64,000 nt of DNA from Lachnospiraceae bacterium (GTDB taxonomy: Bacteria; Bacillota; Clostridia; Lachnospirales; Lachnospiraceae). Position 1 is the stretch's first letter, and each line of letters starts with the position of its first letter. Under the pieces are notes generated by a model. It searched no databases. It worked only from the letters and a program-made list of their open reading frames with translations, and was not told where the DNA came from. Of the stretch, positions 7,096-37,857 are shown one piece after another. The stretch covers positions 114,482 to 178,481 of the forward strand of contig JAMPFQ010000001.1 of the NCBI GenBank assembly GCA_023664345.1. The letters run 5' to 3'. A program made the translations under genes and the position numbers.

Positions 7096-7136
7096 AGAAG
7101 AGCACCTCCCTCCTGATACATTCTATGAGGTATAGT

Positions 7137-8491: not shown

Positions 8492-8505
8492 GTTATCTCT
8501 CCTCT

Positions 8506-9549: not shown

Positions 9550-9552
9550 AAT

Positions 9553-10383: not shown

Positions 10384-10399
10384 CTGGATTCCCCCTTCA

Positions 10400-11458: not shown

Positions 11459-11477
11459 CCCTCAATTATCTCTACAT

Positions 11478-12614: not shown

Positions 12615-12651
12615 TTACTCCTCTTTCTCCTTGCCAGCAATCTGCTTATTA

Positions 12652-13636: not shown

Positions 13637-15181
13637 TTATCTACCTCCTCGGTTTACAAGTTGCTTCAAATACTTCATGCTCTCAATCAAACTGCTGCTT
13701 TTCAATACCCACAGCAAAATACAATAGCTGAATACCCCCATTATCGTACAAACAGCCACTCTTACTAAAACTACATTCTGCATTATCTGAAGTTTCATCA
13801 ATACCACATTGATCATATAAACAAAAATGCTCATAATGATCGTCGCTATTATGATCTTGATCAGTTCACCCTTTACAGGTTTAAGCGATACAAAGTCTAC
13901 TTTCCTTTTCAATCTTATATAATATAGCAAAACGCAAAGCCATGCTGCAATACTTGTCGCCAATGCCAGACCGATATGCGCAAAATATCTGATCAGAATA
14001 AAATTCAAAACTATATTACAGATAATTCCCATCGCCGAATTTATCATAGGTGTATGAGAATCGCTTAATGCAAAATATATTTTCTCCAATATAATGCGAA
14101 ATCCTATGGGAATCACTCCCAGCAAATAAGCCTGCAATGCCACTGCTGTCAAATTAACAGCTTCTGTATCAAACGCACCTCTATTAAACAACACTTCTAT
14201 AACAGGCCTTGCCATAACAAAAGCTAATGCGGTAATCGGAATTACCACCAATGCAACTATTTTGAAAATCTGTATTAACTTGTCTTTAATTAGCGTTTCC
14301 TTCTTTTTTGCCAGGCTTTCTGTTAACATAGGGAAAAAGGCTCCCGCAGTAGGATTTACTATCACGGCATATATCATACTGCTGACTTTAGATCCATAAT
14401 CCAATGCCGTAATACTTCCCGGTGCCAACCCAGATGCCAGCCTCTTATCAATCAGTATATTCACATCTGTCAACAATTGACTGAACAAAATAGGGAAAAC
14501 CAATCTTCCAAATTCTGACAAATATGATTTCTTTGCCTTAGAATGTCCACAATATCGAAGCCCATATTTTCGGGAACCGCCCCATAATAATGCAAAATAG
14601 AGCACATTTCCCAATAATACTCCCATGCTTAACGGAAATAAGTAATCCTCCGTACTGATCAACACGGAAATTATCATGACTATATAAGTAACCGCAGGGC
14701 AAATACCTATGATCAAGAAGCTTTGGTGTGCCTGCAAATATCCTTGGAACACTCCACTTATGCCCATAAACAGAATGCTTGCTCCCATAATCTTCGTCCA
14801 TCCAACTGCCATTGGCAAAAACGCAGCATTCATTCCGCCTAAAAAAACATAGATGAATTCTTCTGTAAAAAACATAAGCAAAGCATATATCACTACAGAA
14901 AAAGCCAAAACAACATTAAGACAATTACTGGTAAATACATTCACCTCTCCATTGTTTTGTATATGGATCTTATTGTATATGGGAACATATGCTATAGCTA
15001 TCGCTGCCATGATTCCCGCAATAATATTTGTTGGAAGGGCAGATGTCGCAATATAAATATCACTGATGCTGCTCGCTCCATATTTATAACTTAATACAAT
15101 ATCACGTGCAAAACTAAGGATTTTCGTAAGCAGCATCCCCGCAATCAATAAAAATGAAGACTTTAACAGTCTATTCATCAT
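13637..15181 (-). CDS. MurJ/MviN-like MOP-superfamily flippase
   Basis: 14-TM-type hydrophobic profile. The N-terminal signature LTKILSFARDIVLSYKYGAS..SDIY matches MurJ. Confidence 0.65.
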   Translation of the reverse strand: MMNRLLKSSFLLIAGMLLTKILSFARDIVLSYKYGASSISDIYIATSALPTNIIAGIMAAIAIAYVPIYNKIHIQNNGEVNVFTSNCLNVVLAFSVVIYALLMFFTEEFIYVFLGGMNAAFLPMAVGWTKIMGASILFMGISGVFQGYLQAHQSFLIIGICPAVTYIVMIISVLISTEDYLFPLSMGVLLGNVLYFALLWGGSRKYGLRYCGHSKAKKSYLSEFGRLVFPILFSQLLTDVNILIDKRLASGLAPGSITALDYGSKVSSMIYAVIVNPTAGAFFPMLTESLAKKKETLIKDKLIQIFKIVALVVIPITALAFVMARPVIEVLFNRGAFDTEAVNLTAVALQAYLLGVIPIGFRIILEKIYFALSDSHTPMINSAMGIICNIVLNFILIRYFAHIGLALATSIAAWLCVLLYYIRLKRKVDFVSLKPVKGELIKIIIATIIMSIFVYMINVVLMKLQIMQNVVLVRVAVCTIMGVFSYCILLWVLKSSSLIESMKYLKQLVNRGGR

Positions 15182-16454
15182 TCTCCTGCCTTTCTGCTCT
15201 CAATCCAAACTTTCTACTCAAAAAATAAACAGCCGGAAAAAACAACAATACATACTCCCAACCCATATGCCAAAAATAGTAGATAGGAGATACCATACAC
15301 ATAAATATGATCACAGGCATTAAATAATAGCCCGCTTTCTTCTTATACGCACTTTTAGCTATACGACCAAAAAGTAATCCTGTTATAACAACCATAAATA
15401 ATGTTCCCACAATCCCCCAATCCATTATATAACCCGAGATAAAGGTAGAATATCTTTCCGCTGCTGGATTTAATGCAGTAATTTTAAGATACTCAGGAAA
15501 CGGAATCCCTATAGCACGTAAAATATAACCTTCCAAAAAAAAGAGCAGCGCTCCATAATATTTTGGCGTACTCCAAAATTCAGAGTATGTTTTTGTAAAT
15601 ACAGGAATACTATGCGTAAAATATAGGCTTGCCTTATATAAAGGGTTGACCATGCCATGTGTGGCAGAGTATATTTTTCCATACACCGGCCGAAGTGTTA
15701 CATCTCCCGGATAAAATAAATACTGTTCTGGCGCGGTATGCTCACCTCTGGTAGAGAACAGCGAAAGGGTAAAATATCCCAGGATACCTATAATAACAAT
15801 GCATATCAAAATCCTGCCCCACTGTTTCCTTTTCATTTTTATCTTTTCTTGTACGCTCTGGTAATGATTTAAAACAACTATTATCATGAACAGTCCCACA
15901 GAAGTGACCACTCTGCTTCGCCCTCCTACTCCCAAAATAGCTATTGCAGGCAAAAAAAGAGCTCCCACTGAAACCACTCTGGTAATTCGGTAATTCAGTC
16001 TTGGTACCCGGCTTAATATAAGATACGCCACTGTGCCTAAATACATAGCAACCTCCGCAATCTTATTTATAATAGAGCGATTTGCGCTCAATATATTCCG
16101 ATAATCAGCAACGGCAAACTGATATCCACCAGGCACAGGTAAATGTATGACCTCCCACATGTATATCACGAACGCAAACACGCTTACCGCCTCTACAAGC
16201 AATAACATTATTTCCGCGCTTTTCGAAATAGTTACTATATATCTTTCTTTTTTTTTCATTTTTCCTGTTCGCTCACCTATATAACAACTCATTATAAAAA
16301 AAACAAACACCACCAGCACATAAATCAACCCTTCGTAATCATATACTGTGTGCTTGTACGGACCCATGAAAAAAAGAAACCAATAAGCTATTTGTGCAAC
16401 TATCAGACACTTATAAGGACTGATTTTTTCCATTTTTACTTGCCAGCCTTTCAC
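15171..16454 (-). CDS. polytopic membrane protein, possible Wzy-type polymerase
   Basis: It has more than 10 predicted TM segments and sits in a glycan locus. There is no sharp motif. An A9 run at 16243-16252 lies near its 5' end. Confidence 0.3.
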   Translation of the reverse strand: MKGWQVKMEKISPYKCLIVAQIAYWFLFFMGPYKHTVYDYEGLIYVLVVFVFFIMSCYIGERTGKMKKKERYIVTISKSAEIMLLLVEAVSVFAFVIYMWEVIHLPVPGGYQFAVADYRNILSANRSIINKIAEVAMYLGTVAYLILSRVPRLNYRITRVVSVGALFLPAIAILGVGGRSRVVTSVGLFMIIVVLNHYQSVQEKIKMKRKQWGRILICIVIIGILGYFTLSLFSTRGEHTAPEQYLFYPGDVTLRPVYGKIYSATHGMVNPLYKASLYFTHSIPVFTKTYSEFWSTPKYYGALLFFLEGYILRAIGIPFPEYLKITALNPAAERYSTFISGYIMDWGIVGTLFMVVITGLLFGRIAKSAYKKKAGYYLMPVIIFMCMVSPIYYFWHMGWEYVLLFFPAVYFLSRKFGLRAERQENDE

Positions 16455-17751
16455 TCACATATACTCTCAAAGCATCAGACATTTTATCCATCTCACTATT
16501 GAACATATTATTATTATTATAAAATTTAGCCTGAAACATTCCCTGCAACAAATCGGACATAAATTTTTCATTCGAATAATCTACTACAGGATAATCAAAT
16601 ATAGATCTGTCAATTTTATCTATTTTATATATGTTCGGATGAAGATCGGAATAATAATTATCCGTAAAAGTGAACACCCTTTTCCCTCTGAATAATGCTT
16701 CCACTCCTACTGACCCTGTATATACCGCAACATTATCAATCCACTCTAACAATTCATTACTGTTGTCATATGGGTGAATCAAATGAACATTTTCATATTT
16801 CTTCAGCTCCCTGTAAAATTCCAGATCACGCCGCAAGAACATGGCCGGATGTTCTTTGATAACCAAAACGACCTCTTTGGAAGCCTCGCTGACAATCTTT
16901 AAAATGGATTCCTCATATAATGCGAATTCAACCCTATCACACCAATACTCTACTGTTGCCTCAGGGGCAAGGTGCAACGGCAGAAGAACAGTCTTACTAT
17001 TTTTTTCTATTTTATCCCTAACATCCTCCATATGTTCAAAGTAATGTTCTATATTTTTATCCATCACTTTTTTAAAATGCCAATTCTTTTCCAGCACTGT
17101 ACCATAATGATAGTTATCAGGATCTCTTGACACCACTTTCTTAATGTTAAAATAGTTCCTCTTGATTATTTCTCTGATATATATCTTAATCACATCATAA
17201 TATTTCTTCTGTTGATTTGCTTCAAATTTTGGCTTATATTCTATCCTCAATACCTCCTGCAATGTTGACTGTATTTCCTGTTGCGACACTACACGAGGAA
17301 ACTTATTCAGTTCGCCACGCACAGATATTCTTGTATATCCATTAAAAAAATGACCCACAAATGATACATATAGTATTTCATGCTGCTTAGCCACACGTTC
17401 CATCACATCCTGAACATAGCAGTCAATCAAGTTCCCCATGATAAAGTCAATGTGCTGTCCCCCAAAAAAAGTGTCCAACCCGTTTGCCAAACGATCAATC
17501 AGTCTATATGCCCTTTCTGTTTCCAGTTTTCTAAGGAACCGACACCTTATCCGTATACTTTCTCTTGTATTTCCATCAAAAAAGTGCTCACTTTTATCAT
17601 ACTTTGCAGAATACAGGAAATCTCCTGTCCACAGCATGTCTTTCCTGCGTTCGTCTGATAACCCGATTATTTCAGCTGTCGGAAATGCACCCTGTGCCAG
17701 TTCCAAACTGAAACCTTTATCGCATCTTCGTCTATGAACAAATATCCGCAT
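16411..17751 (-). CDS. capsule-polysaccharide-biosynthesis family protein (KpsC/KpsS-like, PF05159-type; candidate nonulosonic-acid/Kdo-type transferase)
   Basis: The VLVIKEHP...YTGSVGVEALFRGKRVFTF pattern fits the HP motif and C-terminal part of the Capsule_synth family. It has a GAGGG RBS and an ATG at 17751. Confidence 0.4.
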   Translation of the reverse strand: MRIFVHRRRCDKGFSLELAQGAFPTAEIIGLSDERRKDMLWTGDFLYSAKYDKSEHFFDGNTRESIRIRCRFLRKLETERAYRLIDRLANGLDTFFGGQHIDFIMGNLIDCYVQDVMERVAKQHEILYVSFVGHFFNGYTRISVRGELNKFPRVVSQQEIQSTLQEVLRIEYKPKFEANQQKKYYDVIKIYIREIIKRNYFNIKKVVSRDPDNYHYGTVLEKNWHFKKVMDKNIEHYFEHMEDVRDKIEKNSKTVLLPLHLAPEATVEYWCDRVEFALYEESILKIVSEASKEVVLVIKEHPAMFLRRDLEFYRELKKYENVHLIHPYDNSNELLEWIDNVAVYTGSVGVEALFRGKRVFTFTDNYYSDLHPNIYKIDKIDRSIFDYPVVDYSNEKFMSDLLQGMFQAKFYNNNNMFNSEMDKMSDALRVYVSERLASKNGKNQSL

Positions 17752-19270: not shown

Positions 19271-20822
19271 CCTCTTCAGTTTATCTCAAATCTTCATGCA
19301 TCCTATTTCTGAGTCGCTGTCTATCTATTTTTCCATTCAGATTTAACGGCAGGACTCCTAACCTAATATACCGTTCTGGATGCATATGTTCAAGAAGGAT
19401 TTTTCTTCTTTTTCAGTTAAACACTCTGTTTCAGCATCGCCAAAAAATAGCACAATCTTTTTCTCTGCGTCATACAAACAACAGCATTCGTTAATTGTCT
19501 CCACCTTTTTTGCTGCTTGCTCTATTTCTCCAAGTTCTATTCGATATCCCATATGCTTTATCTAAGAATCCTTTCTGGAAACAAAAACCAATTCTCCATT
19601 TTCATTATACTTACCATAATCACCTGTATGATAAATAATCTCGTGCTTTTCTAAATTCAGCGGATTAGATATAAATACTCATACTGTAATATCTTCATCA
19701 CAAATATAACCCTGCGAAAGGCCGCAGCCACGCACACAAATTTCTCCCTGTTCACTATCTTTAACAATATGATTATCTTTGTCAAGTAGTATGATTTCTT
19801 TATTTCTACATGGTTTTCCGATAGGTATCGGTTTTGTAGGATCAAGCATACCAGGTACTTTATAAAAAGTACATGTATCCGTTACCTCCGTAGATCCATA
19901 TAAATTCACAAAATTCACCTTATCATAAACCTCAATCCATTGATTAAGATCCGCTGCCGACATTGCCTCTCCGCCAAACCACACTTCTCGCAGTTCAGGC
20001 AAATAAGGCGACTGCAATGCGTGAAATCTGGATACTAGCTTTAATGCAGACGGAACCCACACTAAAGTACTGATCTTGTTAACAAACAAATACTGCATAA
20101 GACTCTTAGGCTTCAAAAACAAATCCTGAGGCACTATATATGTAGTTGCACCACTTTTTATATTCAGATATATGTCATATACAGAAAAGCTGAAATATAA
20201 TAGTGTCTGATTTCCGAAAACAGAAGTACTGTCAACATTTAAATAATCTGCAACCCATTCGATCAAATCAATGATTCCGCCATGCGTGATCATCACTCCT
20301 TTCGGCACGCCGGTAGATCCTGATGTGAACAGTACATAAAGGAGATCCGTAGTTAACACGCTGTCAGTCACTTCACTAACACAAATATGTGGGATTGCAT
20401 TCAAAATGCTCGCTTCATATATCAAAATTTTTTGCTTGAGAAAATATTTCTTCTGCTTCTTCTTTATGTCCAAAATCAGTAATTACTACTTGAGGACGCA
20501 GCTTCTCAATAATTTTATTGATTCTCTCTGCAGGCAGACTCACATCTATCGGAGAATAAAAATTACCACCTTTCGCTACAGCCATGAATGAAACTATACA
20601 TCGTACTCCCTTGGGCAGAAAAACAGCTACTGCATCCTTTACACAACCTGTATTGATGATATGAGAAGCAAGTATATTGACTATTTCATTCATATCAATA
20701 TAAGAAATTTCTTCATTGGTATCTACAAACGCAGTTTTCATCGGATATAATTTTGCGCTTTGTTCTAAATGATCTGTCACATTACAAATCATTTGCTCTT
20801 GCCTCCATAGTCTTCTTTTCAA
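19271..20822 (-). pseudogene. DltA-like adenylation enzyme (amino-acid--carrier-protein ligase) pseudogene
   Basis: The N-terminal fragment is at 20415-20822. The core fragment at 19679-20473 carries FTSGSTGVPKGV. The C-terminal fragments at 19358-19552 carry GYRIELGEIE, and a further shifted piece ends ...LPLNLNGKIDRQRL* at 19271. Multiple frameshifts are needed to join them. Confidence 0.6.
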
Positions 20823-26619: not shown

Positions 26620-27519
26620 CTACAAAAATTTGTGACCAATAATCAATCTCTTTCCATCATATTCATAATCGCTGATTACCAAAATACCTTCAGCAGTAAT
26701 CACACCAATCTCATTATTTTCATTGATCCATGCAATCTGTCCTGGCAAACCAATATACTGCTTGTTCTCCATAGGATACGCACGCCAAATAATAAATTTT
26801 ATCTCATTATAGCTTGTAAACGCTCCCGGATATGGGTGACTCGCTGCTCTCACTAATTTCGCAATATCATACGCGGATCTCATCCAATCAATTTTGCCAT
26901 CCTCAGGTCGCCTAATCAACAAATATGTTGCCTGCTCCTCATTTTGCGGGATAAAGTTGACCGAATCATTGTATATATCTGGCAGGCACTGAATCAATCC
27001 CAAATGAATTGCCTGACACACTTTATCATATACATCTGTCACATAATCGACATCTTCAATCATATATGGATATTGACAAATAATATCTCCTGAATCCATT
27101 CCCTCATCCAGCTTAAAAAACGAAACCTTAAGTTCTTTTTCCCCAAGCAAAATCATCCACGGAAGCGCTGCCCTTCCTCGATATTTAGGCAATGGCGTCG
27201 GATGAAAACCAATAACATATTCTTTCGCCAAATTCAAGATTTCGGAAGAAAGGATTTGCGAAAGTCCAATCACAAAAATAAAATCAGGATCAACTTTCCG
27301 CATACGGTCTACAACTTCATCTGCATTTATCTTTTTAAATTTGAGATATGGCAACCGATTCTTCTCTGCAATTAGATGAAGCGGAAAATAATCTGACACA
27401 TTAGCCGAAGCTTCCTCGTCTAACGAACACACCAAGTCAATCTTTATTCCCTGATCAATCATTGTTTCCAAAGCTATCTTACTCGAAATAACAGAACCTA
27501 TAAAAATAGTATTTTTCAT
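26620..27519 (-). CDS. formyltransferase-family protein (second paralog)
   Basis: GFHPTPLPKYRGRAALPWMILLGEKELKVSFFKLDEGMDSGDII matches the formyl_trans_N catalytic core. Confidence 0.7.
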   Translation of the reverse strand: MKNTIFIGSVISSKIALETMIDQGIKIDLVCSLDEEASANVSDYFPLHLIAEKNRLPYLKFKKINADEVVDRMRKVDPDFIFVIGLSQILSSEILNLAKEYVIGFHPTPLPKYRGRAALPWMILLGEKELKVSFFKLDEGMDSGDIICQYPYMIEDVDYVTDVYDKVCQAIHLGLIQCLPDIYNDSVNFIPQNEEQATYLLIRRPEDGKIDWMRSAYDIAKLVRAASHPYPGAFTSYNEIKFIIWRAYPMENKQYIGLPGQIAWINENNEIGVITAEGILVISDYEYDGKRLIIGHKFL

Positions 27520-28133
27520 TTTTCAACTCCTGCCTTATTGACAAATTTATCTTCTCCAAACATTACTATTGCCACAGTTTTGAATATAATCCTTATATCA
27601 AGCCACAAACTGACCCTCTCTACATACTCAACGTCATATCGACTTTTCTCTGTTCTTTCCAGGTATATGTTCCCATTTACCTGCGCAAGTCCTGTTAATC
27701 CTGGCTTAAGCTCGAATCGCTTTTTTTCCCATTCTTCATATTGATCAAGATATTCCGGCAAAGTAGGCCTGGGACCCACAATAGACATATCACCTTTTAA
27801 TATGTTAAGTAATTGCGCCAATTCATCAATCTTAAATCTTCGTAAGGATTTTCCTAATGGAGTAATTCTGGCATCATCTTTCATTACCTCAACACCAACT
27901 TTTTGAAAACGGTCTGCACCAGTTTTCATTGTCCTAAACTTGTACACTTTAAATATTTTTTGGTTCTTTCCAGGCCTTTCCTGCGTATAAAAAATCTTTC
28001 CTGAAGAATCCAACTTTATAAGCAACGCAACTATGACCAAAAATGGGAACAGCAATATAATCGCAAACAACGACAGAATAAAGTCCAATATTCTTTTTAT
28101 ATATCGTCTATAAATCTTTTGAGATTCTTTCAA
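27516..28133 (-). CDS. monotopic initiating phosphoglycosyltransferase (PglC/WecA-independent 'bacterial sugar transferase' family)
   Basis: It has a single N-terminal re-entrant helix, then KFRTM, IVGPRP and PGLTG motifs. At 205 aa it is PglC-sized. Confidence 0.8.
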   Translation of the reverse strand: MKESQKIYRRYIKRILDFILSLFAIILLFPFLVIVALLIKLDSSGKIFYTQERPGKNQKIFKVYKFRTMKTGADRFQKVGVEVMKDDARITPLGKSLRRFKIDELAQLLNILKGDMSIVGPRPTLPEYLDQYEEWEKKRFELKPGLTGLAQVNGNIYLERTEKSRYDVEYVERVSLWLDIRIIFKTVAIVMFGEDKFVNKAGVEK

Positions 28134-28163
28134 TATAGTTCCCTCACTATCATTATTCTGGAT

Positions 28164-28814
28164 CTACATTTGTCTATATTTTACAGGTTTCGCAGGCATC
28201 CCAACCGCAGTGCATCCACTTGGCAGGTCTTTGGTTACCACCGCACCCGCTCCAACAACTGTCCCGCATCCGATCTTTCTTCCCTGAATGATCTGCGTCC
28301 CTGTGCCCAACTCCACACACTCTTCCACAGTAACACAACCTGACACATTGACACTGGGATAAATTGTCACAAAGTCTCCAATCATTGCATCATGCCCCAC
28401 CGTACAATCCAAATTAATAATCACATGGCATCCTATGGAAATATCCACCGTTAATATCGTCCCTGCGCAAATAATGCTTCCCTCTCCAATCCTGATTGCA
28501 GAAGATAACGTAACGCTGGGATCAATCAGTGTTGCAAATTTAACATTCCTGTATCCTTCAATTTTACGTATAACCTTTTTTCTGACTTCCGCTGCACCTA
28601 TGGCACATACCACCCATACTTCCTCTTCACATCGTGCCAAAAGACTACAGTCCCCGATCACCGGATACTTAGTTTCCTGCTTGCTCTGTTTTTCTTCGTC
28701 GTCATCTATAAATCCTGCCAACTCCCATACAGGAATCACACTATTGATCCGTTCTATCAGCCAGGCTACTTCTTTCCCAAAGCCGCCCGCACCTACAATA
28801 TATATTTTCCTCAT
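28164..28814 (-). CDS. PglD/NeuD-family amino-sugar N-acetyltransferase
   Basis: IYIVGAGGFGKEV is followed by hexapeptide repeats. At 216 aa it is PglD-like. Confidence 0.7.
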   Translation of the reverse strand: MRKIYIVGAGGFGKEVAWLIERINSVIPVWELAGFIDDDEEKQSKQETKYPVIGDCSLLARCEEEVWVVCAIGAAEVRKKVIRKIEGYRNVKFATLIDPSVTLSSAIRIGEGSIICAGTILTVDISIGCHVIINLDCTVGHDAMIGDFVTIYPSVNVSGCVTVEECVELGTGTQIIQGRKIGCGTVVGAGAVVTKDLPSGCTAVGMPAKPVKYRQM

Positions 28815-28823
28815 AACTTCCTC

Positions 28824-30521
28824 CTATGCCGCATATCCTGTAAGAAGTTCTAAGGAAATTTTTTTTATCCCATTGGATTCAAAGGGAGTTGTTACCCCCC
28901 CCCCAAGCGCATACAATCCTTCTGGATTTTGAAACCAAATCGTGCCCATCCCTAATGCTTCTGGCGCCGTAAAATCCTTTGCAGCATTATCCCCCACATA
29001 CACCATTTCCGAGTATGCGCACTGCATCCTCCCTCGCATTATCTCAAACGCAATCGGACAGGGTTTCCTAAAATCAGTCGGATCTGTGTTCCCTGCCAAC
29101 TCATCTGTAATAATTATTTCAAAATCATAAGCATCCAATCCCAACTGCTGAATTTTAGCCCTCTGCCCTTCTGGTCTTCCGTCTGTTATAATCCCCAATT
29201 TCACTCTTTTCTCACTCAATATATCCAACAGCTTTTCTGCTTCATCATATAAAACAATCTGTGGAGTATGCACCCTATATATTCTCAAGCACTCGCTCCT
29301 TTTTTCTTCTGTATAAATACCTGCATTATGCAATACTTCATCAATCGCATTTTTACCAGCTTCAAAGGCCGCCCACAACTGCCTTTCTGCATCCGGTATC
29401 TCAGGAAGCTGGTCAGCCACCGCCTTATAACCACTTTTAACATATTGTTTCTCAGAATATAGCGTGTCATCCAGATCAAATATGACCGCCTTGTATCGCA
29501 TGCATATATCCAGAGCCTGTGGAAGACTATTGATCACTGTTCTATTTTTTATCTTTTTAGGAAAAACGCATATACTCTGATCAAATCGACTATATATTGT
29601 TCCTTCTTCTGCTGCGTCCTCCCGATACTGACATTCAGCACCCATGCATAATTGTATCAATGCTTCTGCGGAATCCGCACCAGCTTTCATTGATAAAGGA
29701 GCTCCGCCACCAAATCGCGGATTGATCTCAATATAATAATTTTCATTAGTCTCACTATGTTTGATAAGCTGAACGGTAATAGGTCCACACGGCTTAAATT
29801 TATCTATTATGCTAAGACTTTCTTCTACTATTCTTTCGTCCTTTATTATGCAGGTTTTTAAAACCTCGCCACTTCTCACCGCCATGCGCTCTCTTGGGGT
29901 AACATAGATTGGCCTCCCCTGAAAATCGCAGAAAATATCTACTGTATACTCCCTCCCATTGATAAAAGGTTGAATAATGTAATCCTTGATCTGCTTTGCA
30001 TAAGCTGTCAGTTCTTCCAAATCATTAACGCGATATGCGTTAATACTGGAACTTCCATCTTTTGGTTTTATAAAACAAGGGTATTCCCCCTGATAGTTTT
30101 CAATATCATCTACGGGATAAGGTGTCCTTAAACCACACTCCCTAAAAAAGTCTGCCGTATATCTTTTGTCTCGGCACAAAGCAATCTTATCTTCGTCACT
30201 TATCAGCACTCTAGTCCCTATTGATTGAAATTGTTCTCTGTTTTCAGACAAAATCAGCAAATCCGTATCAATAGTTGGTATTAACAGGTCAATCCCTTCC
30301 TGTTCACATATTGTCAGCAGCATTGGGATATAATTTGTATCCGATATTGCGCACACCTTAACAGCCTTATCACAAAAAAACAAGGCTGGTGCAGTTTCCG
30401 TTATGTCTACCCCCACGATTACTGCTCTCTTTCCTAGCTTTTCCGCTGCGTTTCTAAAACATTGTATCAGTTCTACGCGCCTTCCAACGCTTGTAAATAG
30501 TATTTTAACTGTATCGTTCAT
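28824..30521 (-). CDS. ATP-grasp ligase fused to a C-terminal HAD-family hydrolase
   Basis: The N-terminal roughly 330 aa has ATP-grasp hallmarks (YPCFIKPKDGSSS ... EINPRFGGG). The C-terminus has HAD motifs I and IV (VIFDLDDTLY ... YVGDNAAKD). Confidence 0.65.
   Translation of the reverse strand: MNDTVKILFTSVGRRVELIQCFRNAAEKLGKRAVIVGVDITETAPALFFCDKAVKVCAISDTNYIPMLLTICEQEGIDLLIPTIDTDLLILSENREQFQSIGTRVLISDEDKIALCRDKRYTADFFRECGLRTPYPVDDIENYQGEYPCFIKPKDGSSSINAYRVNDLEELTAYAKQIKDYIIQPFINGREYTVDIFCDFQGRPIYVTPRERMAVRSGEVLKTCIIKDERIVEESLSIIDKFKPCGPITVQLIKHSETNENYYIEINPRFGGGAPLSMKAGADSAEALIQLCMGAECQYREDAAEEGTIYSRFDQSICVFPKKIKNRTVINSLPQALDICMRYKAVIFDLDDTLYSEKQYVKSGYKAVADQLPEIPDAERQLWAAFEAGKNAIDEVLHNAGIYTEEKRSECLRIYRVHTPQIVLYDEAEKLLDILSEKRVKLGIITDGRPEGQRAKIQQLGLDAYDFEIIITDELAGNTDPTDFRKPCPIAFEIMRGRMQCAYSEMVYVGDNAAKDFTAPEALGMGTIWFQNPEGLYALGGGVTTPFESNGIKKISLELLTGYAA
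28895..28904. repeat. second C10/G10 homopolymeric tract, inside the 3' end of the ATP-grasp-HAD gene
   Basis: Ten consecutive C on the plus strand, which encode GGGV in ...YALGGGVTTPFESNG... about 25 codons before the stop. Confidence 0.9.
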
Positions 30522-30606: not shown

Positions 30607-31842
30607 TTAGCCAAAACATCTTCTCACAATCTTAATCACTACATCCTGCTGTTCTACGGTCATTTTATTATCACTGGGCAGACACAATCCTCTTTGAAAA
30701 ATATCCGCCCCCACATCAGCACATTCACTTTCTATATATGCGTTCGTTCTGGCCCTTCCATCCCCTGAGCGCGTTACAAATCCGTTCATCCTGTATATAG
30801 GCTGTAAATGCATGGGTTTCCAGATTGGCCGTCCCTCCGCATTATACCTGGCTAAAGCTTCCAGGATTTCTGTGGGACAGCTTTTGCCCTGCTCCGTAAT
30901 ATACAGGGCTTCTCGTTCTCCCCGCACCTGTTTGCACATAGCATCTTCATCTATCAAGATGCAGCTCAGCCAATAATTAGGCTCTGATTTCTCCTTATCA
31001 TATGGATTCATAGTCACGGGCAAATCTTGAAAGGCATTTTGATATCTTTCATAAATTGCCTTTTTCTGCGCAATATGTTCCTCCAGGAAAGGGAATTGTC
31101 CTCTGACAACACCGGCTATCACATTGCTCATTCGATAATTATATCCCAATTCCTCATGCTGATACCATGGAGCTGCTTCTCTGGCCTGAGTAGACCACTT
31201 TCTTACCTTGTCCGCCGCCGCTTTATCATCCGTCAACAGCATTCCGCCGGAAGAACCAGTAATAATTTTATTCCCATTGAAAGAGATTGCATTATATTTT
31301 CCAAATGTCCCTGTCTGTGTCCCTTTATAGACCGCCCCCAAAGATTCTGCGGCATCTTCGATAATAATCGCACCATGGTGGTCGCAAATATCCCTAATCT
31401 CCTCCACCTTACCAGGCGTCCCGTACAAATGCGCCACCACTACAGCCTTTACTCCGGAATAAAGCTTGAAAGCCTCTTCCAGCGCTACAGGATCCATATT
31501 CCAGGTATCGTATTCTGTATCAATAAAAATCGGTTCACCGCCCTCATACTTCACAGGGTTGACCGAAGCGTCAAATGTCATATCAGAGCAAAACACCTTA
31601 TCCCCTTGTTTGATTCCAGCCAGCTTTACCGCCATATGCAGTGCAGCCGTTCCTGTTGAAAGAGCCACTGCGTATTTGCTCCCCGTCTTATCACAGGCCA
31701 GCCGCTCAACTTCATTTATATTTTCACCCACAGTGGACATCCAGTTGTCATTATACGCTTTTGTCACAAATTCCAGTTCCGGTCCATGCATAGTTGGAGA
31801 ACTTAACCAAAGCTTGTCCTTAAATGGCTGTATCTGTTGCAT
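30607..31842 (-). CDS. DegT-family aminotransferase (PglE-like UDP-4-keto-sugar aminotransferase)
   Basis: FNGNKIITGSSGGML ... LGYNYRMSNV. The ORF extends to 31938, but the likely start is an internal Met near 31842 or 31866. Its GC is clearly higher than the genes to its left. Confidence 0.7.
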   Translation of the reverse strand: MQQIQPFKDKLWLSSPTMHGPELEFVTKAYNDNWMSTVGENINEVERLACDKTGSKYAVALSTGTAALHMAVKLAGIKQGDKVFCSDMTFDASVNPVKYEGGEPIFIDTEYDTWNMDPVALEEAFKLYSGVKAVVVAHLYGTPGKVEEIRDICDHHGAIIIEDAAESLGAVYKGTQTGTFGKYNAISFNGNKIITGSSGGMLLTDDKAAADKVRKWSTQAREAAPWYQHEELGYNYRMSNVIAGVVRGQFPFLEEHIAQKKAIYERYQNAFQDLPVTMNPYDKEKSEPNYWLSCILIDEDAMCKQVRGEREALYITEQGKSCPTEILEALARYNAEGRPIWKPMHLQPIYRMNGFVTRSGDGRARTNAYIESECADVGADIFQRGLCLPSDNKMTVEQQDVVIKIVRRCFG

Positions 31843-32452
31843 AGAATTTCTATCATGAATCATTTCCATCACTCCGTTTGTAAAGTTATAGCCAAAGCAT
31901 CCCACACGGCATAACATAAATCTAATGTATCTTATCACACTTTTTATGAAAAAGCAAATAAATGGAAATCTGAATTTTCTGCAAAGGAATTAACCTTATA
32001 CGGTTAACTCTAAAAATACACTCGATTGGAACGCGATATGGACAACAGCTACAGGAATTTCTTACTAAGACTAAAGGAGAAGCACATCCGATGACGTTTC
32101 ACCCAGCAGCAGCTGTGCCCCTGTATACAAATACCGCAAAGTTCTTTCAGCAGAACGGAAACAGAATATATATGCTTTACATATCCTAAACTCAAATATC
32201 TTTTACAGTCTGCGAAAGCAACATGGACATATCTGGACAGGTTATGCTGCAAATCCTGAAGAGGGATATGATCTTGTATGGACGCAAAATGGTCAAAAAA
32301 CAAATCGGCAGAAAAATGCAGGAATCAACCTTGCACGGTTCATTCCTGCAATATTAAGAGTCTCGGACGGAAAAAACTGCATGCTGTCTTTCAGGATTAT
32401 AAAATCAGTATATCAGAAGCATCCTCACAACGCCTTTCAGAAAACATGCAAC

Positions 32453-33377
32453 CTACTCGGTGCCGTATGATACGCCATCCTTTTCTGACAAGAGTTTTTT
32501 AAGTCGAGCAATTTCCGCATCTTTTACAGCAAGTTCCGCATCTTTATCGGCAAGAGCAGCCTCTTTCCTGGCAAACTCTTCCTCCACATAATTCTGCCGG
32601 CGGTAATAATCTTCGCGGGCTTCACACTGCAGGCGTATTTTTTCTTCCTGCGTCAGCTGGTAGATGGTGTTGGATGCATCGTTGATAAAATCATCTTTTT
32701 GTGCGAGCATTTTGATTTCCTCCCATGTGGTGGACTTGAAAAGGGAAGCCCAGTAGTCGATGTGATATGACCTGTCTTCTTCTGTTGCCAGATTGATACA
32801 AGTTAAGTTTAACACAGAGAAGCGTAGTTTGTCACTATATAACATATGATTTTTTACGTTCAGGAATTGATAAGTCGCATAAAACTCCGGACTTTCCGGA
32901 AACAGGGTAAAATTTAACAGACCAATCTGTATGGTCGGCTTCGCATAGCGGTAGTCCTGGTTATGCTCCAAATGGTCGAACGAGCGGCAGAGATAACTCA
33001 GGGAACGGTCTGTCCAGTTGTGCTCATTGATGACCTGCATCTCCAGATTGATATCGGTCTGGTCATTCATTAGTACTTTGACATCAAGGAAAAAGTCTCT
33101 GCTGTCAATGGTATCACCCAGTTCGATGGGATTCCTGATAGACACTGTGCGGACCTGTTCGCTGCTCAGATGCAGCAGGGAGCAGATCAGACCTTTCAGG
33201 ACGCGGTTGTTCCGCTGCAGCAGGGCACGGAACAGATAGTCATTGTACATAGGGATGGCGACAGGACCGGTAGCGGAATCGAGTCCTGTACCCGAGGCGG
33301 TTTCAGGAGCAGTGTCACGTTCCATGGTGACAGAAATGGAATTGTCAGGTACGTTGTTTGTGATCCTATTGTTCATA
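32453..33377 (-). mobile_element. Rpn-family recombination-promoting nuclease / PD-(D/E)XK putative transposase
   Basis: MYNDYLFRALLQRNNRVLKGLICSLL (the D..FK.LF-like N-terminus), a PD-(D/E)XK-like core and a C-terminal coiled coil (EEEFARKEAALADKDAELAVKDAEIARLKK). An AAGGAG RBS sits 5 nt before the ATG at 33377, so the ORF-track start at 33460 is probably too long. Confidence 0.6.
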
Positions 33378-33700
33378 CATTCTCCTTTGTGAGTGTGGCA
33401 TGGCGTTTTGATCAGGACGGTATTACGCACATTCAAAGTGCGGCACACTAAACAGCTCAAAACCTGAATGAAAGATCAAAATGCAGTCTGTAGTTTATGA
33501 TACAGGGTATAAACGGCGAACCGCCGCAGGATATCAAGTCGTTAAAAGCGTGTAATATAAAGGATACGGCTTAATCTAATAAAACAATAACATTATTTCA
33601 GAATAATGTCAACAGCAAATTGTATGTGCTGGAAATTTTGTCAGCATTTTGTCTTTTATATATGGTACGATCTGATGGGATGTGATACTATACAAATTAT

Positions 33701-33730
33701 ACAAAAAATAACCCGGCAGCACCGGGTTAT
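33701..33730 (-). terminator. Rho-independent terminator downstream of the three-gene island operon
   Basis: On the minus strand a perfect 7-bp stem (AACCCGG/CCGGGTT) with a 5-nt loop is followed by a TTATTTTTTG run, about 190 nt after the stop at 33923. Confidence 0.5.
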
Positions 33731-33922
33731 AAAGAGGCGGCTCAGATCATTACGGCATATACAAACGCTTTTATTCCCTTGCCGCAAACTGACCTGTGAT
33801 ACCTGAAATGTGATTGCACATAGACCGTATGACAATCATCAATTTGAAATCTGTTAAGCGGTAATTCCTTTCCTGTAAAATATCATGTCAAAATGTACTC
33901 CGGCAATTGCTTCTGCCATTTG

Positions 33923-35029
33923 CTATGCAGAGGCCATCTCCCATGTATTCCAACACTCTTTTTGAACCATTATATCGTATATTTTGTTTCTTATATCCGC
34001 ATTTTTTAAATATCCCAAGATTAACCTGGCATCAGCCCTAAATGACTCTTTAGACCCAAATGTCGCCCGATATAATCCTCTGATCTGATCCGCTGTTTTT
34101 TTTCTACAATTGAACTCTGCCAGCATCCCAAGCAGTTCATCCACTTCTCCCTGAGAAAATATCTGATAATACTGCTGGCATTTAGTCACATATGTTTTCA
34201 GGATAACGACCGCATCATAAAACCTGTTTTTGGTATCTGCGGACAACGGTTGTCCACAGGTAAACAGAAAATCTTCCAGGCTCTGGCCGCTTCCTATACT
34301 GCCTTTCTTTAATCTTGCATTGATATCCTCTCTGATCAGGTTTCTCCACTCCAAATATTTATTTTCACTTTCCATACCTATATACAAAGCGCACAGGTAA
34401 TGCTCTGCCTGTTCAGATATCGAACTCCGCTGTAAATAAACAGTGTTCAGATTCTTAAGGAATGCTGTTATCCAGGACAGTTCTTCCACCGATTTTTTCT
34501 GTTTGGTCATTTTTTGTCCTTCTATATCATCCACGGCATCCTGGACAAATCTATAAACCATCTTCTCAAATCGCCTCGTCAAAACTTCCGCGTCAAACGC
34601 ACAGATCATATCCGCCAGACATATGTTTCTACCCTGGAGCAACAGTTTCATTGTCATTAACAAAATAAACAGAAACAACAGGTTCACCTGATCATTCTCA
34701 TTTAATCCAGTCAGTTTCTTCCAGTAACATTTCACCTCTGCCTCATCTAAACGCATAACCACATCTGTATGCTCCGCACACTTGATGCTCTGACAGATTC
34801 CTCCCTCGATCTGACAAAGTATGCATTTCAAAGAATCCCCCTCTGAACGTGCCTCTCGCATCTCCGCACACGACAATCCAATGTCTTTTCTGTTTAAATT
34901 ATACAAATAGCACATCTGTATAATAGAGTCGCGATCAGGGCACAAGCATAATCCACTGTTTATGTGATCATTCTCGCATTCGATATTTACCGTCATATTA
35001 TATAAGCCTTTGCACACGTCTAACATCAT
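33923..35029 (-). CDS. hypothetical Cys-rich protein (368 aa), third gene of the island operon
   Basis: The N-terminal 85 aa contain 10 Cys (CxC, CxxC-like CILCQIEGGICQSIKC), and the rest looks helical. An AAAGG RBS precedes ATGATG at 35029. It lies 21 nt after the upstream gene. Confidence 0.4.
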   Translation of the reverse strand: MMLDVCKGLYNMTVNIECENDHINSGLCLCPDRDSIIQMCYLYNLNRKDIGLSCAEMREARSEGDSLKCILCQIEGGICQSIKCAEHTDVVMRLDEAEVKCYWKKLTGLNENDQVNLLFLFILLMTMKLLLQGRNICLADMICAFDAEVLTRRFEKMVYRFVQDAVDDIEGQKMTKQKKSVEELSWITAFLKNLNTVYLQRSSISEQAEHYLCALYIGMESENKYLEWRNLIREDINARLKKGSIGSGQSLEDFLFTCGQPLSADTKNRFYDAVVILKTYVTKCQQYYQIFSQGEVDELLGMLAEFNCRKKTADQIRGLYRATFGSKESFRADARLILGYLKNADIRNKIYDIMVQKECWNTWEMASA

Positions 35030-35050
35030 TAGTACCTTTCTATCAACTGA

Positions 35051-36781
35051 TCATACGCTTTTTTCATATTGTACTTCTATGTTTAAAGCTTTTTTTAGGA
35101 TACTGTTGTTCGCATATATGGGCAGCCGATCAATATAATAATCCCTGTAGTTTAATACCTCGTTATTAACAACTTCCTCATATTCATCCGGCAATAGGTT
35201 ATTCTTTATCTCCGGACAACGTGAGCACAATTGTTCGATCAATCCATCCTTTAATGTTGCAAAATCATAGCCGTTTATTGTACAAAACCCTTTAAATTCT
35301 ATCAGTGGCAATACCAGTGCCGCTCTGTTTTCTTCATTACAGGTAGGATTTTGTTCCCCTGCTGCGAGCAGGTTGCCCACACACTCCTGTCGATCTATCA
35401 CATCCGGCGATACGATGATCGTCACTTTACCGGCATCAGCCAGACTGATAGCCTTACACCAGATAGTCTTCATGGCATCGATCTTAAACATATCGCACAG
35501 TGTTCCTATGGAAATGCCTTTCATGCGCGGCTCATTTTTATCTGCCCGCTGTTCGTCCTGTTTTCCACATTCACGTATGAACTGACTCACACTGTCCTGT
35601 GCAGATCTGACCTTATCATAGATATCCTTTGATACTTTTGTAAAAGGATCTTTCTTATCTTCCATGATAAAACCGGACTCAAACTCTTTCAGGCAGGAGG
35701 TCAGTTCTTTTTCACGTCCCCGCAGGCACTCTGCGCTTTTAAAGCCCAGAGACGGTATCTCTTCTTTCCATTTGGCATGTTTTATCCCAATGTTTTTTAA
35801 AAATACATTTCCTAACGCCATACTTATCAAGTATGTTATGGTGCTGTACATAAAACGGTTGTGTGCATATACATCCTCTTGTTGCCAACAATCTTCGATT
35901 TCTTCTCTGCCGCCTTCAAGATCAATATAATGTTGGCTTTTGATTTTCTGAAAAGCGCCGCGAAGAGATCCTTTTTTGACAGGCTTCAGATAACAGTACG
36001 GTACTACGATCACTTTTCCCAGTCTCTTCAATGTATACACCCTGATCAGATCGGCCTGCGTAATCTTCAGAGTCCCCTCAAGCGCTTTATGGTCAGTACA
36101 ATAAAGAAATGCCCCGACACCGTAATGCTCCTGTACCGTTGTAGTAATGTCCTCCACCTGTTCTTTATCCTGTACAAACTTCTTTAGACACTCTCCTTCG
36201 GGGGTATCAAGATCGTATTCCGCATATGGGAGATAGGAAATATAAGGTTGGCCCGCCGTAAAAAAGGCATTAACAATCTTACCAGAAAATGTGCGCCATA
36301 TTTCGTCATCGACCTTCTCACTTGCGTCCAGTCGATCCAATAATCCACTTTTTATCAGCTTCTTGTCAATATTTTGCAAGAGCACTTTTGCACGTATCCT
36401 ATCCGGGCTGCACCCACAATGCTCCACCAGATATTTATATTCCTCATCGAGGGCGCGACCGTGCAAGACAATATCGTCCACCAACAAAATATCAGCGTTA
36501 TTTAGCATACTCTCCCACAACACAACGGATATATTGGTGACTATGCGTCCCTGCGGCTTTATATCGCCTTCATACAAGAAGTCAATAATCTCTTTAAACA
36601 CACTGTATAAGGCAGATAAACGCCTTGTCATCAAGATCTTTATCTGCTCGCTGCTCTGCATGATATCAACAAAAAAGTCCAGGATCCTATAGAAAAAGGA
36701 TTCTCCCAGGATAGATACCAAAATCTGGATCTTAACTGTGACTTTGTCAGATGTAGATGTCATAATCCTTATTCTCCCCAT
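35051..36781 (-). CDS. hypothetical 576-aa protein with an N-terminal type-I phosphoribosyltransferase-like PRPP-loop motif
   Basis: Residues about 95-110 read NADILLVDDIVLHGRAL. This is hydrophobic x4-DD-hydrophobic x3-(T/H)G-x-(T/A), like PyrR VILVDDVLYTGRTV. The remaining roughly 400 aa are unassigned. The start overlaps the upstream gene's stop, which indicates translational coupling. Confidence 0.45.
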   Translation of the reverse strand: MGRIRIMTSTSDKVTVKIQILVSILGESFFYRILDFFVDIMQSSEQIKILMTRRLSALYSVFKEIIDFLYEGDIKPQGRIVTNISVVLWESMLNNADILLVDDIVLHGRALDEEYKYLVEHCGCSPDRIRAKVLLQNIDKKLIKSGLLDRLDASEKVDDEIWRTFSGKIVNAFFTAGQPYISYLPYAEYDLDTPEGECLKKFVQDKEQVEDITTTVQEHYGVGAFLYCTDHKALEGTLKITQADLIRVYTLKRLGKVIVVPYCYLKPVKKGSLRGAFQKIKSQHYIDLEGGREEIEDCWQQEDVYAHNRFMYSTITYLISMALGNVFLKNIGIKHAKWKEEIPSLGFKSAECLRGREKELTSCLKEFESGFIMEDKKDPFTKVSKDIYDKVRSAQDSVSQFIRECGKQDEQRADKNEPRMKGISIGTLCDMFKIDAMKTIWCKAISLADAGKVTIIVSPDVIDRQECVGNLLAAGEQNPTCNEENRAALVLPLIEFKGFCTINGYDFATLKDGLIEQLCSRCPEIKNNLLPDEYEEVVNNEVLNYRDYYIDRLPIYANNSILKKALNIEVQYEKSV

Positions 36782-37728
36782 TCAATGTATGGAACTGCCT
36801 TTACCTTATTAGAACCCCGATCCATCCTGGCGCTGTTTATCATACATCTGACTTTACAGCAGCTGTACCCGACCCCGTCCGAATCACGTCCATCAATACT
36901 ATTATAAAATCGGACTCCCAGCGTCAAAATACTCTTATCAAAGTTTATCCTCTTATAGTTATTATACTTTACATGCATTGTGGCCATATCGAACAGATCT
37001 TCTATGCTATCTGAACAATCGGTATGTTCATCAATGATAATCACCATCTTGTCGGTGATCGATATGTCGCGGTAATCTTTCAGAAAGATATCAAATTTTT
37101 TATCAGCAATCTCCCATTCGATCCGATCAACATCATATTTTGTGACCGGGACCATGCCCTCATTGATAATGTCACAGGTCAGTACAATGTATCTTTTTCC
37201 TTCCATGGTTTTTTTATGACCAAAATAGGTAAAATATAACTCTTCGATATACCAGTTTACCTGATATTCCTTAAGAGGCTTGCTGAACACCTCTATACTG
37301 ACTGACCGTATAGCAATCCTGGGCTTCAACTGATATCTGTTCACGATCTCCGTTAGCCGGGCTATCTGTTCCTGCTGCATTTGTGCCTGCTGATCCTGTT
37401 TATTACTCAACTCCGCTTGCCGATAAGTAACCCACCCAAGCAAAATGGCAACCATACTGCCTATATAGCTGCCCCAGAAGCCAAACCATTCTTTGGCGGT
37501 CATATCCGACTGGATCGGTATTTTATAGTACCATTTATAGGTGATTGCGGCATTGAGCAATATAGGGAACGCCAAAAAAGCAATGATGCCCAAAAAGATA
37601 TATAGAAACGCTCTTCGTTTATCCCTGGAGCGTCTTTTTTTCACGCTTCTGATTGCCATTCCCAAACCCAATAAGACAACAATAGTTATGATAACAATTG
37701 CTATCTTCGTCCAGAATCTCATGGGCAT
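36769..37728 (-). CDS. membrane protein (three N-terminal TM helices plus a roughly 200-aa soluble C-terminal domain), first gene of the island operon
   Basis: Hydrophobic segments IAIVIITIVVLLGLGMAI, AFLYIFLGIIAFLAFPILL and GSYIGSMVAILLGWV. A GAGGG RBS precedes the ATG at 37728. The ORF-track TTG at 37785 is less likely. Confidence 0.45.
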   Translation of the reverse strand: MPMRFWTKIAIVIITIVVLLGLGMAIRSVKKRRSRDKRRAFLYIFLGIIAFLAFPILLNAAITYKWYYKIPIQSDMTAKEWFGFWGSYIGSMVAILLGWVTYRQAELSNKQDQQAQMQQEQIARLTEIVNRYQLKPRIAIRSVSIEVFSKPLKEYQVNWYIEELYFTYFGHKKTMEGKRYIVLTCDIINEGMVPVTKYDVDRIEWEIADKKFDIFLKDYRDISITDKMVIIIDEHTDCSDSIEDLFDMATMHVKYNNYKRINFDKSILTLGVRFYNSIDGRDSDGVGYSCCKVRCMINSARMDRGSNKVKAVPYIEWGE

Positions 37729-37857
37729 GTCCCTCTTTTGTACTATAACACATGCAGCATTCGTTTTCGCCATCAATAATGGCAATTTATTGTTACTAGC
37801 TTATCATATCCTTACAATAAAATCAATTATCAATTTGCTGACAGCCCTATATAGCAG

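Follow-up and report, generated by a model that had tools for sequence, protein, structure and literature searches.

The 64,000-nucleotide stretch of Lachnospiraceae bacterium DNA analysed here (contig JAMPFQ010000001.1, positions 114,482 to 178,481; hereafter the window) encodes GraspHAD, a protein in which an ATP-grasp ligase domain is fused to a phosphatase domain of the HAD family, and which is encoded among homologs of PglC, PglD, PglE and PglF. The locus, from a gut member of the Lachnospiraceae, is of the capsule type. GraspHAD is real and widespread, an apparently uncharacterised variant within a known type of pathway, and probably attaches an unusual acyl group, which may be glyceroyl, to an amino sugar of the cell surface.

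The ATP-grasp-HAD fusion and its genomic neighborhoods

Pfam profiles assign PylC-like_N and ATP-grasp_3/ATPgrasp_Ter to residues 7-319 of GraspHAD and HAD_2/Hydrolase to residues 343-532, with ATP-grasp_3, ATP-grasp_4 and ATPgrasp_Ter all scoring over the Pfam cut-offs. The N-terminal domain has the fold, the ATP-binding Lys and the E-x-N-x-R motif of ATP-grasp carboxylate-amine ligases, and an alignment of homologs shows its catalytic residues K152, E265, N267 and R269 to be invariant, together with GGG271-273. The C-terminal domain has the features of a C1-cap phosphatase of HAD subfamily IA; its motifs FDLDDTLY (D349, D351), ITDG (T446), FRKP (K486) and GDNxxKD (D511, D516) are invariant in 23 homologs, and the motif set (Asp and Asp+2) is, as read from the sequence, of the phosphatase type. 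In an AlphaFold (AF2) model of the protein, which is confident (pLDDT 85.4), the linker at residues 317-324 is disordered and the HAD domain bears a C1 cap made of four helices at residues 357-417.

The closest solved structure of the ATP-grasp domain is 2pn1 (E 8e-35), with which the AF2 model can be superposed at TM 0.89 and rmsd 1.9 Å. Beyond it, a Foldseek search of the PDB gave fold-level matches only, biotin carboxylase and carbamoyl phosphate synthase (CPS) being 15-19% identical with TM of about 0.55, and the strongest sequence match among solved enzymes of known function, the L-amino-acid ligase 3vot, is weak. GraspHAD scores below the cut-off of every PRK12767 equivalog model (NF009405, 297.3 bits against 390; the remaining models of NF009402-NF009406 likewise), indicating a related but distinct subfamily. 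For the HAD domain, even the best family matches are generic: CTE7 reaches 82 of the 170 bits that its cut-off demands, and similarity to the models of YjjG (56 bits) and pyrimidine 5'-nucleotidase (40 bits) is weak. It is noticeable that, relative to unfused 2pn1-type proteins, the fused family has exchanged four conserved acidic residues (positions 185, 221, 249 and 251) for neutral ones and has gained an invariant Arg117, changes that, at the level of the alignment, fit an anionic co-substrate.

A protein search, in which the 8000 candidates with the most shared words were scored, returned 5969 matches. The best 120 of these are 527-766 amino acids (aa) long, all contain both domains, and come from Lachnospiraceae, Ruminococcus, Fibrobacter and Muribaculaceae; their annotation goes no further than 'HAD-IA family hydrolase' or 'ATP-grasp domain-containing protein'. 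The exact 565-aa product is absent among the matches listed, the best of which is 72% identical, and this may be an effect of the search index. A survey of one genome per species, the counts of which are lower bounds, found at least 594 species genomes encoding a GraspHAD relative. These belong mostly to gut and rumen Firmicutes, and the taxa also include Saccharibacteria, Synergistaceae, Selenomonas, Planctomycetales and metagenome-assembled genomes of Bacteroides.

We kept 80 related loci, called their open reading frames (ORFs), scored these against the window proteins and counted neighbors within 6 kb. The two domains are fused in 73 loci and split into two genes in the other seven, in each of which a clean in-frame stop at the linker is directly followed by an ATG or GTG start. 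The HAD domain is always downstream of the ATP-grasp domain, whether fused to it, encoded by a separate next gene or fused to the product of the following gene. The last arrangement is seen in a HAD-PIG-L fusion (L002, 10964-12280) and a HAD-LicD fusion (L085, 460-1824), the latter preceded by a truncated ORF for an ATP-grasp protein of the same family. More distantly, a HAD domain of the same subfamily is also fused to cytidylate kinase. GraspHAD-PglD triple fusions occur as well (P0061, P0091); their PglD is of a different subtype from the PglD-like protein of the window, with about 30% identity. The only fusion of a phosphoglycosyl transferase (PGT) to ATP-grasp and HAD that was found, P0376, no longer has the K/E/N/R residues of ATP-grasp or the Thr of HAD motif II and, judging by these losses, is probably inactive; we attach little weight to it. 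Fusions of this HAD subfamily other than the plain ATP-grasp-HAD arrangement are listed for L002, L085, P0385, P0061/P0091 and P0376. We found no description of an ATP-grasp-HAD fusion in the literature searched, in agreement with a sequence-only reading of the window, which had not recognised it as a described enzyme.

The dominant gene order in the 80 loci is (Wzy-like)-dehydratase-aminotransferase-PGT-GraspHAD. A PGT gene lies within 6 kb in 68 loci and is directly adjacent in 50, an aminotransferase gene is present in 60, and a dehydratase gene, situated upstream of the aminotransferase gene, in 39, many of the contigs being truncated. Wzy-like homologs lie upstream of the PglF gene in about 15 related loci, and the commonest gene downstream of GraspHAD is LicD. 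Genes for formyltransferase-like (FMT-like) proteins and PIG-L deacetylases were counted in eight and three loci, respectively. A PglD-like gene is present in seven loci and absent within 6 kb in 73, so that in roughly nine loci out of ten GraspHAD is the sole candidate N-acylating enzyme beside the enzymes that make the C4 amine.

Two loci are informative in this respect. The first, L089, is syntenic with the window (identities of 60% for the aminotransferase, 72% for the PglD-like protein PglDb, 78% for the PGT, 74% for the FMT-like protein, 76% for PIG-L and 73% for the GT4 glycosyltransferase), and a second, non-orthologous PglD-like gene stands exactly at the position that GraspHAD occupies in the window. 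The second, L087, has the order aminotransferase-PGT-FMT-like-PIG-L-ATP-grasp-HAD and no PglD. The sequence-only reading had appealed to the exchange of acetyltransferase for ATP-grasp known from Neisseria PglB and PglB2, and the gene swap in L089, with the rarity of PglD-like genes elsewhere, bears this out; we consider it well supported that the ATP-grasp stands in for an acetyltransferase. The fusion itself proved real, conserved and, as that reading had supposed, tied to a 4-amino-sugar pathway when its architecture and its co-occurrence with PglC, PglD, PglE and PglF were surveyed over the 80 loci. No gene for the biosynthesis of an acid is conserved in the minimal four-gene module, so that a common metabolite is to be expected as the co-substrate.

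At 5-8 kb downstream of GraspHAD, several loci (L005, L013, L021, L025, L027 and others) share a recurrent block of genes for a UDP-sugar dehydrogenase, an SDR, a DUF2334 protein (polysaccharide-deacetylase-like), a distant GxH formyltransferase-like protein and GT4 glycosyltransferases, which recalls the logic of the Arn (Ara4N) pathway.

Proposed reaction and competing explanations

We propose that the locus makes a lipid-linked 2,4-diamino-2,4,6-trideoxyhexose, which would be the first sugar of a Wzy-dependent surface polysaccharide. As their homology shows, the PglF-like and PglE-like enzymes convert UDP-GlcNAc to UDP-2-acetamido-4-amino-2,4,6-trideoxyhexose. The gene context suggests that the ATP-grasp domain would then activate a carboxylic acid as its acyl phosphate and join the acid to the C4 amine, replacing the acetyl-CoA-dependent PglD step of the classical pathway. 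Less certainly, the acid would itself bear a phosphate ester and would most likely be 3-phosphoglycerate, in which case the acyl phosphate would be 1,3-bisphosphoglycerate. The fused HAD domain would strip the phosphate, rendering the step irreversible and leaving a 4-glyceramido sugar similar to the GATDH of Neisseria, and the PglC-like PGT would transfer the sugar to undecaprenyl phosphate. Two further activities may act on the same scaffold: the cassette of PGT, FMT-like protein and PIG-L probably alters the acetamido group at N-2, removing the acetyl and then re-acylating or formylating the nitrogen, and the VioB-like acetyltransferase might serve a parallel di-N-acetyl branch or acetylate another position.

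Since all phosphatase motifs of the HAD domain are invariant, ligation of a phosphorylated acid followed by dephosphorylation is plausible on the evidence of the sequences. Taken as a whole, a bacillosamine-type route in which GraspHAD acylates the C4 amine with a phospho-acid that the HAD domain then dephosphorylates is the reading that we prefer, tentatively, at somewhat under an even chance. Its specific form, in which the ATP-grasp domain captures the acyl phosphate of 3-phosphoglycerate with the C4 amine of the UDP-bacillosamine precursor and the HAD domain removes the 3-phosphate, is possible but by itself rather unlikely. We name 3-phosphoglycerate as the leading candidate because its acyl phosphate occurs in ordinary metabolism and because a glyceramido group is known on the same scaffold in Neisseria.

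Several observations weigh against this proposal. Our data do not favor glycerate over other acids, and the best family matches of the HAD domain are no more than generic. The window encodes three candidates for acyl transfer (GraspHAD, the PglD-like protein and the FMT-like protein) where two amines are evident as acceptors, and the tally does not come out even; L089 shows the same excess, with two PglD-like proteins and one FMT-like protein. The triple fusions of GraspHAD with PglD would be odd if both enzymes competed for one amine, and the sole PGT-ATP-grasp-HAD fusion has degenerate catalytic motifs. The likeness to the HAD protein and PglB2 of Neisseria is one of analogy, drawn from their descriptions and gene content. 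The excess of acyltransferases might be explained by a branch with two sugars, by an acyl group that bears an amine and is then capped, or by O-acetylation.

The capped acyl group belongs to the alternative that survives best, although we still think it improbable. Here the ATP-grasp domain would join an ordinary amino or hydroxy acid to the 4-amine, and the HAD domain would act before ligation, freeing that acid from a phosphorylated form (serine from phosphoserine, for instance, or glycerate from 3-phosphoglycerate); an acyl group with an amine could then be capped by the PglD-like or FMT-like protein, as in the deacetylase-ligase-acetyltransferase logic of mycothiol. Such a scheme would account for both the acyltransferase excess and the triple fusions, and amino-acid-type substrates in the wider family are suggested by L084, where unfused relatives adjoin an Orn/Arg decarboxylase, as well as by the weak match to 3vot. 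However, 73 of the 80 loci have no PglD-like partner, the PglD subtype of the window is not that of the triple fusions, free serine and the like are available without a dedicated phosphatase, and the acidic pocket residues of the unfused family have been lost in the fused one.

A much less probable explanation is that the HAD domain is a pyrimidine 5'-nucleotidase. By clearing the UMP or CMP that the neighboring PGT and LicD enzymes release, it would drive their reversible reactions onward, and position alone would connect it with the chemistry of the ATP-grasp domain. In agreement with this are the weak resemblance of the domain to models of YjjG and pyrimidine 5'-nucleotidase, the fusions of the subfamily to LicD and, at a greater distance, cytidylate kinase, the adjacency of PGT in 50 of the 80 loci and the frequency of LicD downstream. 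On the other hand, every nucleotidase model scores far under its cut-off, and the HAD domain follows the ATP-grasp domain rather than the PGT: cassettes without ATP-grasp are also without HAD, and even the HAD-LicD fusion has an ATP-grasp of the same family directly upstream.

We give marginally less credence still, and very little, to acylation by GraspHAD of the N-2 amine exposed by PIG-L, with the VioB-like enzyme acetylating N-4. PIG-L is indeed a neighbor of GraspHAD in two loci (L004, L030) and part of a HAD fusion in L002, and the nearest solved relatives of the PglD-like protein are all C4-amine enzymes. Yet PIG-L lies within 6 kb in only three of the 80 GraspHAD loci as against 60 for the C4 aminotransferase, leaving N-4 as the only free amine in most of them, and L087 combines ATP-grasp, HAD, PIG-L and FMT-like genes with no PglD.

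Finally, we effectively discount an assembly or frameshift artefact, or a CPS- or D-Ala-D-Ala-ligase-type enzyme outside sugar modification: although the nearest NCBIfam models are named 'carbamoyl phosphate synthase-like protein' and Foldseek gives biotin carboxylase and CPS folds after 2pn1, those matches are at the level of fold only, the gene is a continuous ORF among sugar-pathway genes, and the same architecture recurs in 73 of the 80 loci and in many phyla, with a clean stop and start in the seven split cases. The sequence-only reading had counted both possibilities as contrary to its proposal, and the scores speak against the ligase-type one, since Dala_Dala_lig_C (20.4 against 24) and CPSase_L_D2 (19.4 against 19.8) fall below their Pfam cut-offs and the Ddl models of NCBIfam reach 24-27 bits against cut-offs of more than 240.

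The conserved fusion of a ligase with a phosphatase points to a general two-step route by which hydroxy-acyl groups would be drawn from phosphorylated central metabolites. If the glyceroyl version of our proposal is correct, GraspHAD would supply the missing enzymology for N-glyceroyl amino sugars, GATDH-like sugars of the kind found on Neisseria pilin would be common on the surfaces of hundreds of species of gut and rumen anaerobes, and the HAD gene in the pgl loci of Neisseria would serve the same purpose. The general route would also sharpen the prediction of substrates for the adjacent small PGTs and of the diversity of surface glycans in commensals.

The window locus and the PGT/FMT-like/PIG-L cassette

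Features of the GraspHAD locus, in window coordinates (scores are Pfam bits unless another model is named)
Feature	Position	Strand	Family match
PglF/CapD-like membrane-anchored UDP-GlcNAc 4,6-dehydratase, 626 aa	37858-39738	minus	Polysacc_synt_2 415.5 bits; CoA_binding_3
Three ORFs without a family match	33923-35029, 35051-36781, 36769-37785	minus	
PDDEXK_2 (Rpn-like) ORF	32453-33460	minus	PDDEXK_2 100.3 bits
PglE-like DegT-family UDP-4-keto-6-deoxy-GlcNAc C4 aminotransferase, 443 aa as called	30607-31938	minus	DegT_DnrJ_EryC1 266.5 bits
GraspHAD (ATP-grasp+HAD fusion), 565 aa	28824-30521	minus	
ATP-grasp ligase domain of GraspHAD, residues 1-316	29574-30521	minus	PylC-like_N 93.7 bits; ATP-grasp_3 59.8 bits
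HAD-IA phosphatase domain of GraspHAD, residues 343-532	28926-29495	minus	HAD_2 63.2 bits; Hydrolase 68.1 bits
PglD/VioB-like NDP-4-amino-sugar N-acetyltransferase, 216 aa	28164-28814	minus	PglD_N and hexapeptide repeats; TIGR03570
PglC-like small monotopic PGT, 205 aa	27516-28133	minus	Bac_transf 216.6 bits
ArnA-N/Fmt-like formyltransferase-family protein (FMT-like), 299 aa	26620-27519	minus	Formyl_trans_N and Formyl_trans_C
PIG-L/LmbE-family de-N-acetylase, 222 aa	25943-26611	minus	PIG-L 91 bits
GT4 glycosyltransferase, 405 aa	24708-25925	minus	Glycos_transf_1 55.6 bits
Wzy/O-antigen-ligase-like polymerase, 551 aa	23040-24695	minus	Wzy_C 30.8 bits, just under the cut-off of 31.7

Every gene of the region is on the minus strand, so that transcription runs from the dehydratase through an apparent insertion to the aminotransferase, GraspHAD, the PglD-like gene, PGT, the FMT-like gene, PIG-L, GT4 and the Wzy-like gene. 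From the aminotransferase through the Wzy-like gene, neighboring genes are separated by -4 to 85 bases, which makes this stretch one operon-like block; the stop of the PGT gene overlaps the start of the FMT-like gene by 4 bases. The five products named by the sequence-only reading (PglC-like PGT, PglD-like acetyltransferase, ATP-grasp-HAD fusion, PIG-L deacetylase and formyltransferase homolog) are confirmed by their ORFs and by domain hidden Markov models, with Pfam scores well over the gathering cut-offs. That reading was right that the genes adjoin one another, although PIG-L lies just outside the interval 26620-30521 to which it assigned them; it was mistaken in placing the fusion after the PglC-like and PglD-like genes, both of which GraspHAD precedes in the order of transcription, and it did not include the aminotransferase and dehydratase genes of the pathway.

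Comparison with solved structures agrees with these assignments. The top solved relative of the aminotransferase is Campylobacter jejuni PglE (1o61, E 4e-74), and the PGT, which consists of the Bac_transf catalytic domain alone, is closest to PglC (8e37, E 1.2e-48, residues 6-191). The PglD-like protein scores 206.9 bits with TIGR03570 (NeuD/PglB/VioB; cut-off 160.8), and its nearest solved relatives, all of which acetylate C4 amines, are VioB (7txp, E 3.3e-40), WeeI (4m9c) and the acetyltransferase domain of N. gonorrhoeae PglB (4m98, E 4.5e-27); C. jejuni PglD itself matches only with E 7e-10.

The dehydratase and aminotransferase genes, contiguous in most related loci, are separated in the window by about 5.3 kb (32453-37785). 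Within this apparent insertion, the three ORFs without a family match encode 338, 576 and 368 aa, and Pfam and PADLOC scans gave no match for them. An analogous locus, L002, has an AAA_15/AbiEii-like ATPase gene inserted between the aminotransferase and PglD-like genes, and the insertion in the window may represent cargo or defence genes in a capsule locus. The G+C content is about 0.40 below 38 kb and about 0.50 above it, with the shift in or near the dehydratase gene, which suggests that the serotype-specific downstream part of the locus was acquired horizontally.

Elsewhere in the window, a second sugar pathway resembling legionaminic acid biosynthesis is encoded on the minus strand at 6187-13632. 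It comprises genes for a GDP-Man-dehydratase-like SDR, a DegT aminotransferase, a CBS+nucleotidyltransferase protein, NeuB+SAF and a CMP-sugar synthetase, and also the second PglD-like acetyltransferase gene (7137-7790) and the second formyltransferase gene (6187-7095) of the window. At 13637-17751 are genes for a MurJ-like flippase, a Wzy-like protein and Capsule_synth. The region from 18 to 22.8 kb contains short ORFs only; one of 264 aa (19679-20473) matches just the C-terminal part of the AMP-binding profile PF00501 (158-383 of 384) and hence looks like a truncated gene or pseudogene.

The PGT, FMT-like and PIG-L genes form a conserved and probably mobile cassette. Sets with the same gene order are encoded in Sporosarcina (PGT 73%, FMT-like 59% and PIG-L 62% identical to the window proteins) and Jeotgalibacillus (67%, 61% and 60%, respectively), and the cassette occurs in L087, L088 and L089, identity between Lachnospiraceae and Bacillales being 60-78%. 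The PGT and PIG-L of the window are 67-78% and 58-76% identical, respectively, to the cassette proteins of L081, L082, L087 and L089. As the cassette is found with or without an ATP-grasp gene, it is a second, separable module and not an alternative account of the ATP-grasp.

The FMT-like protein is nearest to the N-terminal domain of ArnA (E 1.8e-34) and has the fold and family domains of N10-formyl-THF formyltransferases, but it departs from their Asn-His-Asp triad and HxSLLPxxRG motif: in its motif GFHPTPLP, ArnA N102 is aligned to Gly and TPLP replaces SLLP, with H104 and D140 kept. The GxH motif is present in 118 of 120 FMT-like homologs. Given the Gly in place of the catalytic Asn and the TPLP in place of SLLP, the chemistry of this protein should not be assumed. 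A protein 100% identical to it is recorded as a hypothetical protein of Lachnospiraceae bacterium. Genes of the subfamily (P0121-P0240) nearly always lie beside those of a small PGT and a PIG-L deacetylase, and one of its members is a 515-aa fusion with a PGT (P0236). The PIG-L protein carries the APHADDE and HYDH motifs that define the PIG-L/LmbE family; identity with BshB was rejected (BshB1 model, 97 bits against a cut-off of 182.5). The suggestion in the sequence-only reading that N-acetyl is swapped for N-formyl is thus a reasonable account of the conserved cassette, presumably at N-2, but it concerns a module separable from GraspHAD, and the catalytic Asn that formylation would call on is absent. 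With its Asn-to-Gly active site, the cassette represents a second uncharacterised module.

Comparison with known systems

To our knowledge, the N-acylation of UDP-4-amino sugars by ATP-grasp enzymes has been studied in two cases only, Pyl and PglB2. The ATP-grasp domain of Neisseria PglB2 yields the glyceramido sugar GATDH on the same scaffold (PMC11130364, PMC6959607). As proposed for the window, it replaces an acetyltransferase acting on UDP-2-acetamido-4-amino-2,4,6-trideoxyhexose, and the allele-like exchange of pglB and pglB2 resembles the swap of acetyltransferase and ATP-grasp genes between the window and L089. The proteins differ in that the ATP-grasp of PglB2 is fused to its PGT, whereas that of the window is fused to HAD and the PGT is a separate 205-aa protein; the comparison was made by description and gene content only. 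A further likeness is that the annotation of the pgl locus in the GATDH producer N. oralis includes, according to the S2 Fig legend, both a formyl transferase and a HAD hydrolase (PMC6959607). In the Neisseria literature searched, neither the source of the glycerate of GATDH nor any phosphatase step is described, and our search with the FMT-like protein gave no Neisseria match in the best 120.

The second case, Pyl of Bacillus cereus, is an ATP-grasp enzyme that couples 2-oxoglutarate with UDP-4-amino-FucNAc to form UDP-Yelosamine (Hwang et al. 2014, as cited in PMC11626204). Its gene adjoins those for a 4,6-dehydratase, an aminotransferase and a small PGT, a gene content found also in the window and in 60-68 of the 80 related loci, and the reaction proposed for GraspHAD is, when compared by description, likewise an ATP-dependent N-acylation of a UDP-4-amino sugar. 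The Pyl ligase is free-standing; it reportedly has no HAD domain, and its acid is said not to be phosphorylated. A search seeded with 2pn1 returned a large unfused family, with no B. cereus entry among the matches listed.

A precedent for the combined chemistry comes from C. jejuni HS:2, in which the amidoligase Cj1438C acts on a phosphorylated substrate, after which the phosphate is taken off by Cj1435, a HAD phosphatase (PMC11800397). Both systems, as we read GraspHAD, would form an amide at the expense of ATP with a phosphorylated partner and then dephosphorylate the product by a HAD enzyme. In C. jejuni, however, the polarity is opposite (a sugar carboxylate with a phospho-amine) and the activities reside in two separate proteins. 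Homology of Cj1435 to the window HAD domain was rejected (BLASTP E 1.5, no detectable similarity), and the two systems are therefore analogous and not homologous.

The structural relative 2pn1, a 'carbamoylphosphate synthase large subunit' of Exiguobacterium from structural genomics, of unknown function, has its catalytic residues in common with GraspHAD, and 2pn1-type relatives likewise sit in polysaccharide loci. They differ from GraspHAD in being unfused and about 28-35% identical, and 2pn1/PRK12767 proteins have kept the acidic pocket residues. The cassette, in turn, is best compared with the N-terminal domain of ArnA and ArnD, which act in the transient N-formylation of the Ara4N pathway. 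Although the FMT-like subfamily has Gly throughout in place of the catalytic Asn, the hydrolase is of the PIG-L and not the ArnD type, and the transferase is a PglC-type PGT, the cassette shares with that pathway the pairing of an FMT-like protein with a hydrolase and a lipid-phosphate sugar transferase.

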